NCBI RefSeq assembly: GCF_030384885.1 | Contig: NZ_CP128613.1 | DNA: 64,000 nt | Direction: 5' to 3' (one strand) | Origin: Escherichia coli | Lineage (GTDB): Bacteria; Pseudomonadota; Gammaproteobacteria; Enterobacterales; Enterobacteriaceae | Shown: piece by piece, positions 42,275 through 42,859 of the stretch | How positions within the stretch are numbered: position 1 is the stretch's first letter | How the letters are laid out: each line of letters begins with the position of its first letter | Program-made: the position numbers and the translations under genes | Notes under the pieces: model-generated | What the model was told of the DNA's origin: nothing | Databases searched by the model: none | Seen by the model: the letters and a program-made list of their open reading frames with translations, nothing else

Positions 42275-42859
42275 ATGAATTTATCAAGCGTATTCAATCA
42301 GCTTTTAATCTCATTTGCTCTTGCCGGGACGTTGATATTAAGCAGCTATCTCATGAAAGCTCACTACCCACGTTTCAGGAAGCCAATTGCGCTCTTTTAC
42401 TTCTTTTTAGCGATTTATACCAGTTATGCTGCCGTTCAGGAGTATGAGTACCACCGCAATAGCTTGACTACGCTCGCAAAAGTTTCTTCGATTCGTTATA
42501 CCAGTAATTTTAAGCGTAGCGCCTCGCACTCCTGCAATTTACTGCGGGGAGGAAGGATTGATTGCTCGGGGCTGTATGCCTATGACCTGACCTGGCAGAT
42601 TGACGGTAAGACCTGGAATTTGCATGTTGAGGACAAGCGTATAAAACCAGGAATCACCATGTGCGTGAAGGTTGTAAAAGATCGCCCCGCCATCGGGAAA
42701 CCCTGTGAAAACGTGTTTTTCAATATCAGCCCTTTGCCGATTCTGATAGCTATATGGGCAATAAGCGCATTTATATTTGCGGTCTTACTCCTTCACCAAC
42801 TAAAAAAATGCCGCGAATGGAAGCACGCCAGCAAGGAACGTGGAAAAATTGGCCATTAG
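42275..42859 (+). CDS. Hypothetical inner-membrane protein (194 aa; 201 aa if the TTG at 42254 is used), function unknown; second gene of the islet
   Basis: ATG at 42275 preceded by GAGG at 5-nt spacing; hydrophobic segments LLISFALAGTLILSSYL, IALFYFFLAIYTSYAAV and PLPILIAIWAISAFIFAVLLL; four Cys in the predicted periplasmic domain; basic C-terminal tail; AT-rich. Confidence 0.6.
   Translation: MNLSSVFNQLLISFALAGTLILSSYLMKAHYPRFRKPIALFYFFLAIYTSYAAVQEYEYHRNSLTTLAKVSSIRYTSNFKRSASHSCNLLRGGRIDCSGLYAYDLTWQIDGKTWNLHVEDKRIKPGITMCVKVVKDRPAIGKPCENVFFNISPLPILIAIWAISAFIFAVLLLHQLKKCREWKHASKERGKIGH

Follow-up and report, generated by a model that had tools for sequence, protein, structure and literature searches.

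DUF3592 proteins have two transmembrane (TM) helices joined by a small periplasmic or extracytoplasmic beta-barrel, and the family is otherwise described in the literature as uncharacterized. The only member with a proposed role is the mycobacterial protein ML2271/Rv0556, which a single preprint presents, from an AlphaFold3 prediction, as an accessory subunit of the MptB-LpqW complex; it is predicted to lie beside the membrane enzyme and in contact with a periplasmic lipoprotein. In Streptococcus suis, a DUF3592 gene whose role is unclear has been reported as a neighbor of LXG toxins. A second group of described systems with a comparable layout is that of the membrane immunity proteins of bacteriocins and of type VI and type VII secretion systems (T6SS, T7SS), which are small membrane proteins encoded just downstream of the gene for an exported protein.

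The gene considered here, ORF B, has the same kind of position, directly downstream of a gene termed ORF A. A reading of the DNA letters by themselves had predicted a small three-helix inner-membrane protein with a cysteine-containing periplasmic domain, and had suggested that ORF A and ORF B might be an enzyme/partner or toxin/immunity-like pair. Below, we compare this locus with its relatives and with the systems above.

Results

The locus and the replaced spacer

The window (the whole stretch of Escherichia coli DNA that was analyzed, 64,000 nucleotides) is identical to E. coli 2013C-4282 (NZ_CP027579.1), and the gene order of the neighborhood, aspS-nudB-yebC-ruvC-yebB(-)...ruvA-ruvB-znuBCA, is enterobacterial. 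ORF A and ORF B, both on the plus strand, occupy the gap between yebB and ruvA.

40717-41319, minus strand: yebB
41334-42949, no strand given: segment replacing the yobI-containing spacer, by comparison with ordinary E. coli
41413-42237, plus strand: ORF A, the upstream neighbor, 274 aa; "hypothetical protein" in RefSeq/PGAP
42265-42269, plus strand: AGAGG, a Shine-Dalgarno-like motif that ends 5 nt before ATG 42275
42275-42859, plus strand: ORF B coding sequence, 194 aa plus stop; PGAP WP_001054410.1, "hypothetical protein"
42960-42975, no strand given: LexA (SOS) box of ruvA, CTGGATATCTATCCAG, directly downstream of ORF B
from 43027: ruvA, downstream of ORF B

The segment 41334-42949 stands in for about 182 bp of ordinary E. 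coli, in which a 21-codon yobI is the sole gene of the yebB-ruvA spacer, and its G+C content (33-47%) is lower than that of the flanking genes (50-56%). The possibility that yobI is left over from ORF A or ORF B was rejected, since no sequence similarity to either was found. Identity with ordinary E. coli resumes 10 bp before the LexA box, which we take to be the SOS box of ruvA from established knowledge of E. coli ruvAB regulation and which is the conserved right-hand landmark at every locus of the family. A terminator-like match at 42959-42976 is this LexA palindrome itself. ORF A and ORF B are on the same strand, 37 nt apart, with no terminator found between them; no Rfam match was found within 40600-43200.

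Gene reality and start codon

RefSeq/PGAP annotates ORF B at exactly 42275-42859, in agreement with the frame originally proposed. The choice of start had been left between the ATG at 42275 and a TTG at 42254, and can now be settled: the ATG is the start, given the spacing of the AGAGG motif, the starts of the homologs (an ATG equivalent to 42275, mostly preceded by a GGAG/GAGG motif) and the lack of conservation of the seven codons between TTG and ATG, of which six positions are changed in the homologous locus L011 while the Shine-Dalgarno motif is kept. (Loci and members of the family are referred to below by L and P numbers.)

As a family, ORF B is a genuine gene, since homologs at 37-60% core identity keep it with a dN/dS of about 0.09-0.15. 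Its lack of a family annotation, its few homologs and the neutral substitution pattern within Escherichia (see below) could be taken to mean that it is no gene, and that the frame is open merely by chance in a spacer that is AT-rich. For the family, this reading is effectively refuted and we give it next to no credence: pN is far below pS among the homologs of 37-60% core identity, the start and the Shine-Dalgarno motif are conserved, the cysteines are invariant, and a confident AF2 fold retrieves one coherent structural family.

Distribution of the family and its position next to ruvA

The family is small. ORF B homologs form four clusters at 90% identity in a set of 5.8 billion proteins, and about 12 true representatives were found among 1.84 billion cluster representatives; a scan of genome contigs with a narrower alignment returned only four loci, and a scan of metagenomes only two. 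Its range is restricted to chromosomes of Enterobacteriaceae, with no matches in the plasmids and phages searched, and core identity among the homologs goes down to 37-60%. All loci lie in the ruvC/yebB-ruvA spacer, just upstream of the ruvA SOS box, with the exception of one paralog in Superficieibacter electus, which stands alone between upp and glycoside hydrolase/purM.

The gene thus lies immediately 5' of ruvA and on the same strand in all lineages found, and in L019 and L031 it is the sole gene between ruvC and ruvA, as might be expected if the family were functionally tied to ruvAB or to the SOS response. Such a tie is very unlikely. The LexA box and the ruvA promoter are downstream of ORF B, and this box is the sole CTG-N10-CAG site near the A+B module; a search for a further LexA box in front of either ORF found none, and SOS control of the module was rejected on that ground. 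The S. electus paralog is located elsewhere, nearly all E. coli run ruvAB without ORF B, and nothing evident connects a membrane protein of predicted periplasmic orientation with the processing of Holliday junctions. The fixed position is explained by vertical inheritance of an old insertion combined with frequent loss.

Population context and origin of the module

The A+B module is present in 19 of 5,426 complete E. coli genomes. The yebC-ruvC and ruvAB alleles of these 19 carriers form a set of their own, with an identity to the window of 98.2% or more; in all the other genomes the identity does not exceed 96.9%. Over 38.9-44.7 kb, the window is 97% identical to E. fergusonii loci (99-100% over much of the stretch) and only 92-95% identical to O157. 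No flanking repeats were found at the junctions of 41334-42949, and no integrase, transposase or other mobility genes around the module. A mobile island was considered and rejected in the absence of junction repeats, mobility genes, and plasmid or phage copies. Because this absence goes together with a linked divergent haplotype, we conclude that the module entered by homologous recombination, as part of several kilobases of DNA derived from an E. fergusonii-like donor. The module is probably variable in E. fergusonii too, as the profile scan of genome contigs returned none of the loci of this species, nor any of E. coli.

Helices, topology and cysteines

The helix limits below are based on Kyte-Doolittle hydropathy (KD).

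42302-42352, plus strand: TM helix 1, residues 10-26, KD 1.96
42353-42385, plus strand: short basic cytoplasmic loop, residues 27-37, MKAHYPRFRKP, four K/R and no D/E
42386-42436, plus strand: TM helix 2, residues 38-54, KD 1.82
42437-42733, plus strand: predicted periplasmic small beta domain (AF2, conserved cysteines), residues 55-153
42734-42793, plus strand: TM helix 3, residues 154-173, KD 2.7-2.9
42794-42856, plus strand: basic cytoplasmic tail, residues 174-194, seven K/R

Three TM-like segments arise by chance in 2.5% of shuffles of the same composition. The original prediction was right in the number of helices and in the location of the first two; the third runs from 154 to 173 and not from 168 to 188, a displacement of about 14 residues, residues 168-188 being the end of this helix plus part of the basic tail. 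Since the third helix begins at 154, the central domain shrinks from the proposed 110 aa or so to about 100 aa (residues 55-153). TM helix 3 is the most hydrophobic segment of the protein, and TM helix 2 is the conserved first TM helix across the whole family; TM helix 1 is an extra N-terminal helix, limited to the forms from Escherichia, L004, L011 and L016.

The distribution of K/R residues is uneven, with none in the N-terminal tail, four in the loop and seven in the C-terminal tail. Both basic stretches that had been singled out are borne out by these counts: the loop KAHYPRFRKP has four K/R and no acidic residues, and the tail noted as KKCREWKHASKERGKIGH is part of the full tail of residues 174-194 with its seven K/R. 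In the two-TM homologs, the TM / Cys-domain / TM layout is kept with a short and basic N-terminus, and the C-terminal regions are strongly basic (77-113 aa, 19-25 K/R); by the positive-inside pattern, these regions must be cytoplasmic. The four cysteines expected in the central domain are C87 (42533-42535), C97 (42563-42565), C130 (42662-42664) and C144 (42704-42706), and all four are conserved or nearly so across 14 aligned family members, being present in each member whose alignment spans these sites; a fifth, C179, is located in the tail and is not conserved. The host periplasm is a DsbA-oxidizing compartment, and C87-C97 and C130-C144 probably form two disulfides. Given the K/R counts, the basic extensions of the homologs and the four conserved cysteines, the central domain is most likely periplasmic, as first proposed, and the DUF3592-type fold described below agrees with this topology. 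The N-terminus is predicted to be periplasmic as well.

Fold and likeness to DUF3592

The AF2 model of ORF B, based on a 14-sequence alignment, has a mean pLDDT of 88.5, with block values of 88-97 over residues 51-160. It consists of three helices (residues 3-29, 31-61 and 154-193) and five strands (63-76, 100-109, 112-121, 128-134 and 137-143). When this model was searched against AFDB50 with Foldseek, its own family came first and 44 of the next 46 matches were named DUF3592, with E-values of 8e-6 to 1.6e-4 and a probability of 1.0, but with TM-scores of only 0.31-0.49. The trait typical of DUF3592, two TM helices flanking a small beta-rich domain, is found both in the ORF B model and in the two-TM homologs. 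At the sequence level, hmmscan of Pfam-A with ORF B and each of the 14 aligned members left DUF3592 (PF12158) unmatched even at E <= 0.1. A profile search of the PDB gave nothing at E <= 10, and no solved structure was found for comparison. Because the Pfam model is unmatched and a solved structure absent, we file the modeled protein as having a DUF3592-like fold only. In fold, ORF B would be a highly divergent DUF3592 relative, a likeness which the modest TM-scores leave short of proof of homology.

The hairpin motif spanning C87-C97, HSCNLLRGGRIDCSG, also resembles the blade motif HTCALLAGGxIDCWG of actinobacterial RCC1-like repeat proteins (multi-stretch HMM matches, E 1e-9 to 1e-4). However, only about 35-40 residues are matched, in a single copy and within another fold, and ORF B has no propeller. 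Homology to RCC1 was rejected on the basis that a single short motif is involved; the resemblance is probably a convergence or the product of a repeat-inflated E-value.

Loss of the cytoplasmic domain

The majority of the family consists of long forms of ORF B, with a cytoplasmic C-terminal domain of about 65 aa; these are found in L011, L014, L016-L019, L029, P0012-P0014, P0026 and P0031; the rough consensus of this domain is LYRIY..LL.ET...EA..FI..Y......GKK......Y.VR.RKGRR. The ancestral form of ORF B is a periplasmic barrel joined via the last TM helix to a basic cytoplasmic domain of this size. Compared with L011, the E. coli/E. fergusonii gene has an in-frame deletion of 186 nt, with its scar at 42825/42826, which takes out exactly the cytoplasmic C-terminal domain (about 62 codons). 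Core identities show that the cytoplasmic domain was lost twice, because the window copy is nearest to the long-form L011 (77%) and the short-form L004 is nearest to the long-form L016 (71%).

Selection on ORF B

The long forms are constrained, at about 0.1-0.15, as judged from deep pairs: dN/dS is 0.15 for L004 versus L016 (0.09 in the central domain) and 0.09 for L014 versus L018. The picture within Escherichia is different. Across 13 loci with seven distinct ORF B alleles, we counted 33 nonsynonymous and 10 synonymous changes (pN/pS 0.93), a ratio that fits neutrality (P = 0.85) and rejects an omega of 0.1 or less (P = 6e-12), while in the same genomes pN/pS is 0.07 for ruvA, 0.10 for yebB and 0.35 for ORF A. 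Values for ruvC and ruvB came from partial alignments and are left out of this comparison. The simplest reading is that constraint on Escherichia ORF B was relaxed following the loss of the cytoplasmic domain.

The periplasmic domain of the same alleles shows 10 nonsynonymous changes against one synonymous (pN/pS 2.8). This could reflect diversifying selection instead of decay, but the counts are too small: with 11 changes, the ratio is not separable from neutrality (P = 0.48). If selection were diversifying, the short form would itself be functional, with the TM-anchored barrel as an interaction surface (for instance for an envelope factor, or for part of a phage or bacteriocin on its way through the periplasm) and the cytoplasmic domain dispensable. 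It is consistent with this idea that the ORF is open and the three helices and four cysteines are intact in all seven distinct Escherichia alleles, and that the rest of the ORF was kept when the C-terminal domain was lost, independently, on two occasions. Nevertheless, we consider a functional short form unlikely: the TM regions are also unconstrained (0.6-0.75), the tail has premature stops and varies in length, with alleles of 181, 189 and 194 aa, known defense proteins are unmatched, and the module occurs in so few of the E. coli genomes. Relaxed constraint therefore remains our preferred reading of the Escherichia copies.

ORF A and the proposed partnership

ORF A most plausibly extends over 41413-42237 (274 aa); in some PGAP annotations it starts at 41188, has 349 aa and overlaps yebB. 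It has a signal-peptide-like N-terminus, MRLFINVIIIVSISQCVNVFA/QD, which is conserved in homologs, and two invariant cysteines, so that a compartment shared by its product and the ORF B domain is plausible from the predicted topologies. Its AF2 model, from seven sequences, has a pLDDT of 32.6, and a profile search for relatives gave nothing beyond the same six clusters. No toxin, enzyme or defense signature was found for ORF A in Pfam, NCBIfam, PADLOC or PHROGs, and ORF B and its distant members gave nothing significant in the same four collections; PADLOC had no match for ORF A, ORF B, eight other members of the ORF B family or G2 (see below). The neighbors of ORF A and ORF B are housekeeping genes.

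Co-occurrence across genomes had been named beforehand as a check on the partnership, and linkage of the two genes is not conserved. Intact A and B are found together in Escherichia and at the distant locus L014. A frameshifted A accompanies B in L003 (strains H6 and H7), and a remnant of A accompanies B in L004 and L011; B occurs without A in L016, L017 and L019/L031. Conversely, L012 and L013 have A with neither B nor G2, a 228-aa protein with five TM segments and a Cys-rich C-terminal domain that is unrelated to ORF A and ORF B. A occurs with G2 in L015, G2 with B in L029, and a G2 fragment with B in L018. Overall, at least eight loci have B but no intact A, and three (L012, L013 and L015) have A but no B, which shows that the partnership is not obligate.

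A functional periplasmic pair nonetheless deserves to be weighed: the ORF A product would be exported and act as an enzyme or a toxin, with ORF B, anchored in the membrane, serving as its partner or its immunity protein. The two genes adjoin on one strand, both products are predicted to face the periplasm, and both recur at L014, far from Escherichia. The survival of B beside deleted remnants of A in L004 and L011 is reminiscent of orphan immunity genes; the DUF3592 gene beside the LXG toxins of S. suis and the predicted contact of the mycobacterial DUF3592 barrel with a periplasmic lipoprotein provide parallels. On the other hand, B stands alone at L016, L017, L019 and L031 and A at L012 and L013, each is also found with the unrelated G2, ORF A matches no toxin, enzyme or defense model in the four collections, and the locus is absent from plasmids and phages and is neither mobile nor polymorphic-toxin-like. 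Neutral evolution of ORF B alongside an ORF A held at 0.35 in Escherichia would be unexpected for an essential antidote, and two strains keep ORF B with a frameshifted ORF A. We therefore judge such a pair improbable. The partnership suggested in the original prediction is unsupported, since A and B fail to co-occur consistently and no toxin, immunity or defense model is matched; a facultative interaction may still exist, given the joint presence in Escherichia and L014, the 37-nt spacing and the lack of a terminator.

The order A, then G2, then B is fixed across loci. It is conceivable but improbable that long-form ORF B, the exported ORF A and G2, the Cys-rich domain of which would be periplasmic, are what is left of an ancestral envelope system of three genes that is being eroded within the ruvC-ruvA spacer, with an organization analogous to the predicted mycobacterial MptB-LpqW-ML2271 complex; the combinations A+B, A+G2, G2+B, A alone and B alone would then be different stages of decay. 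As no locus with A, G2 and B together was among those found, such a cluster stays speculation. If true, the long-form family would be an unrecognized envelope module, in which a barrel is wired via a TM helix to a basic cytoplasmic domain.

Discussion

On balance, and with moderate confidence, we regard ORF B as a genuine, divergent DUF3592-like membrane protein whose copy in this window is a degraded remnant and not a partner of ORF A. Its chain would start outside and cross the membrane through TM1 to the basic cytoplasmic loop, return through TM2 to the periplasmic barrel-like domain of about 100 aa, and pass back through TM3 to the basic cytoplasmic tail. By analogy with ML2271/Rv0556, our best guess is that the family most likely provides a subunit, anchored in the membrane, with a docking or accessory role towards another protein of the envelope. 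In the window copy, the in-frame deletion has removed the cytoplasmic domain, and the gene, which evolves at a neutral rate, travels together with ORF A as part of an introgressed haplotype that resembles E. fergusonii; we read this copy as most likely a remnant in decay, with its function degraded. The analysis demonstrates that the gene is real, and likewise its architecture, its class of fold, the loss of a domain, the relaxation of constraint and the absence of an obligate link with ORF A; the periplasmic location, the disulfides and the docking role are inferred. With respect to ORF A, ORF B is best read as neither a dedicated partner nor an enzyme subunit nor an immunity protein.

For annotation, a "hypothetical protein" can be replaced by a divergent DUF3592-like inner-membrane protein with a putative disulfide-bearing periplasmic barrel and a fixed start codon, and the neighboring ORF A can be corrected to 274 aa. 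The locus also provides a clean small case of gene decay, in which an in-frame domain deletion is followed by neutral drift within an introgressed E. fergusonii-like segment. DUF3592, which is widespread and has no established function, gains from it a branch that is an orphan in sequence. The constrained long forms of Superficieibacter and several other Enterobacteriaceae, rather than the E. coli copy, are the proteins to study. The finding is a modest one, which opens no long-standing question and will not surprise a specialist.

ORF B can be set against both groups of described systems. It resembles the membrane immunity proteins of bacteriocins, T6SS and T7SS in being a small membrane protein whose gene directly follows that of an exported protein, in that copies outlast a deleted upstream gene (L004, L011), and through the DUF3592 gene noted in an LXG toxin cluster. 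It differs from them in having no conserved linkage to ORF A, in the lack of a match to toxin models and of a secretion-system or mobile-element context, and in being unconstrained in a lineage that still carries ORF A. Its predicted fold is like that of DUF3592 proteins such as ML2271/Rv0556, with which it shares the succession of TM helix, small extracytoplasmic beta-barrel and TM helix. Unlike them, all 14 ORF B members lack a sequence match to the Pfam model, and four cysteines are conserved in the family. The Escherichia-type forms begin with an additional TM helix, the basic cytoplasmic C-terminal domain (deleted in the window copy) is peculiar to the family, and the distribution is confined to one chromosomal slot in a few Enterobacteriaceae.

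Gene gain and loss between ruvC and ruvA

The whole of yebC-ruvC-yebB-ORF A-ORF B-ruvAB, from about 38900 to 44700 in the window, belongs to a divergent haplotype, with 97-100% identity to E. fergusonii loci against just 92-95% to O157. The haplotype is common to the 19 E. coli bearing the ORF A/ORF B module (identity of at least 98.2%); about 5,400 other genomes reach at most 96.9% identity. The haplotype looks like introgression through homologous recombination. The N-terminal third of yebB (41000-41319, minus strand) shows 60-75% nucleotide identity to the O157 allele, compared with 91-95% for the remaining yebB sequence; the YebB protein is 87.5% identical overall. 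This 5' third may mark a recombination breakpoint, or may be a region that co-varies with the adjoining module.

Additional genes occupy the spacer in some of the loci compared:

L015 5854-6540 and L029 3-755: G2, a third cassette in the same slot as ORF A and ORF B
L018 5546-5797: G2 fragment
L014 2753-4246 and L021 1-50 (E. coli 24A16CRGN010): gene for a PstS-family (PBP_like_2) substrate-binding protein

G2 encodes a protein of ~228 residues with about five transmembrane helices and a Cys-rich C-terminal domain, for which a search for a family match found none. It is paired with ORF A in L015 and, in L029, with the long form of ORF B, which has an extra cytoplasmic C-terminal domain. In some module-bearing genomes, the PstS-family gene forms an insertion in the ruvC-yebB interval; the ruvC-ruvA spacer is thus a site of repeated gene gain and loss.

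Start and decay of ORF A

The PGAP annotation of ORF A differs among genomes, with 349 residues in some and 274 in others. The longer version begins at the equivalent of 41188 (41188-42237 in the window) and overlaps, on the opposite strand, the 5' end of yebB, with yebB then cut to 187 residues; the shorter version spans 41413-42237. The start at 41413 is favoured over 41188 by comparison with homologues, by an N-terminus that resembles a signal peptide, and by the Shine-Dalgarno sequence AAGGAA. Several loci carry a damaged ORF A:

L003 (NZ_CP169399.1) 1369-2417, also in strain H7: ORF A frameshift, split into CDSs of 287 and 61 residues
L004 736-924 and L011 194-565: internally deleted ORF A remnants upstream of intact ORF B homologues

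The two frameshifted copies come from Korean isolates, from food and cattle, and ORF B is intact in both. In the L004 and L011 remnants, an N-terminal piece is fused to a C-terminal piece (e.g. ...LALYLNNDKECFMRCF / ...EYPIYANQVSVEID).

Downstream of ORF B, the sole terminator-like element (42959-42976) is the palindrome of the ruvA LexA box followed by a T-run; the ORF A/ORF B transcripts could therefore read through into ruvAB, or be halted there by bound LexA.

Relatives of ORF B and likeness to RCC1

In Superficieibacter electus, a distantly related paralogue from the ORF B family stands alone, with upp on one side and a GH1 glycosidase/ROK/purMN region on the other; the same genome also carries a ruvA-linked family copy (L018).

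L025 6001-6774: P0026, the distant paralogue, long form, 257 residues
Window 42524-42570: Cys87-Cys97 hairpin SHSCNLLRGGRIDCSG, ORF B residues 84-99

HMM searches gave multi-stretch matches to RCC1-like proteins, with E-values as low as 1e-9, because this hairpin closely resembles the blade motif of actinobacterial RCC1 repeats, HTCALLAGGxIDCWG; the likeness is probably due to convergence.
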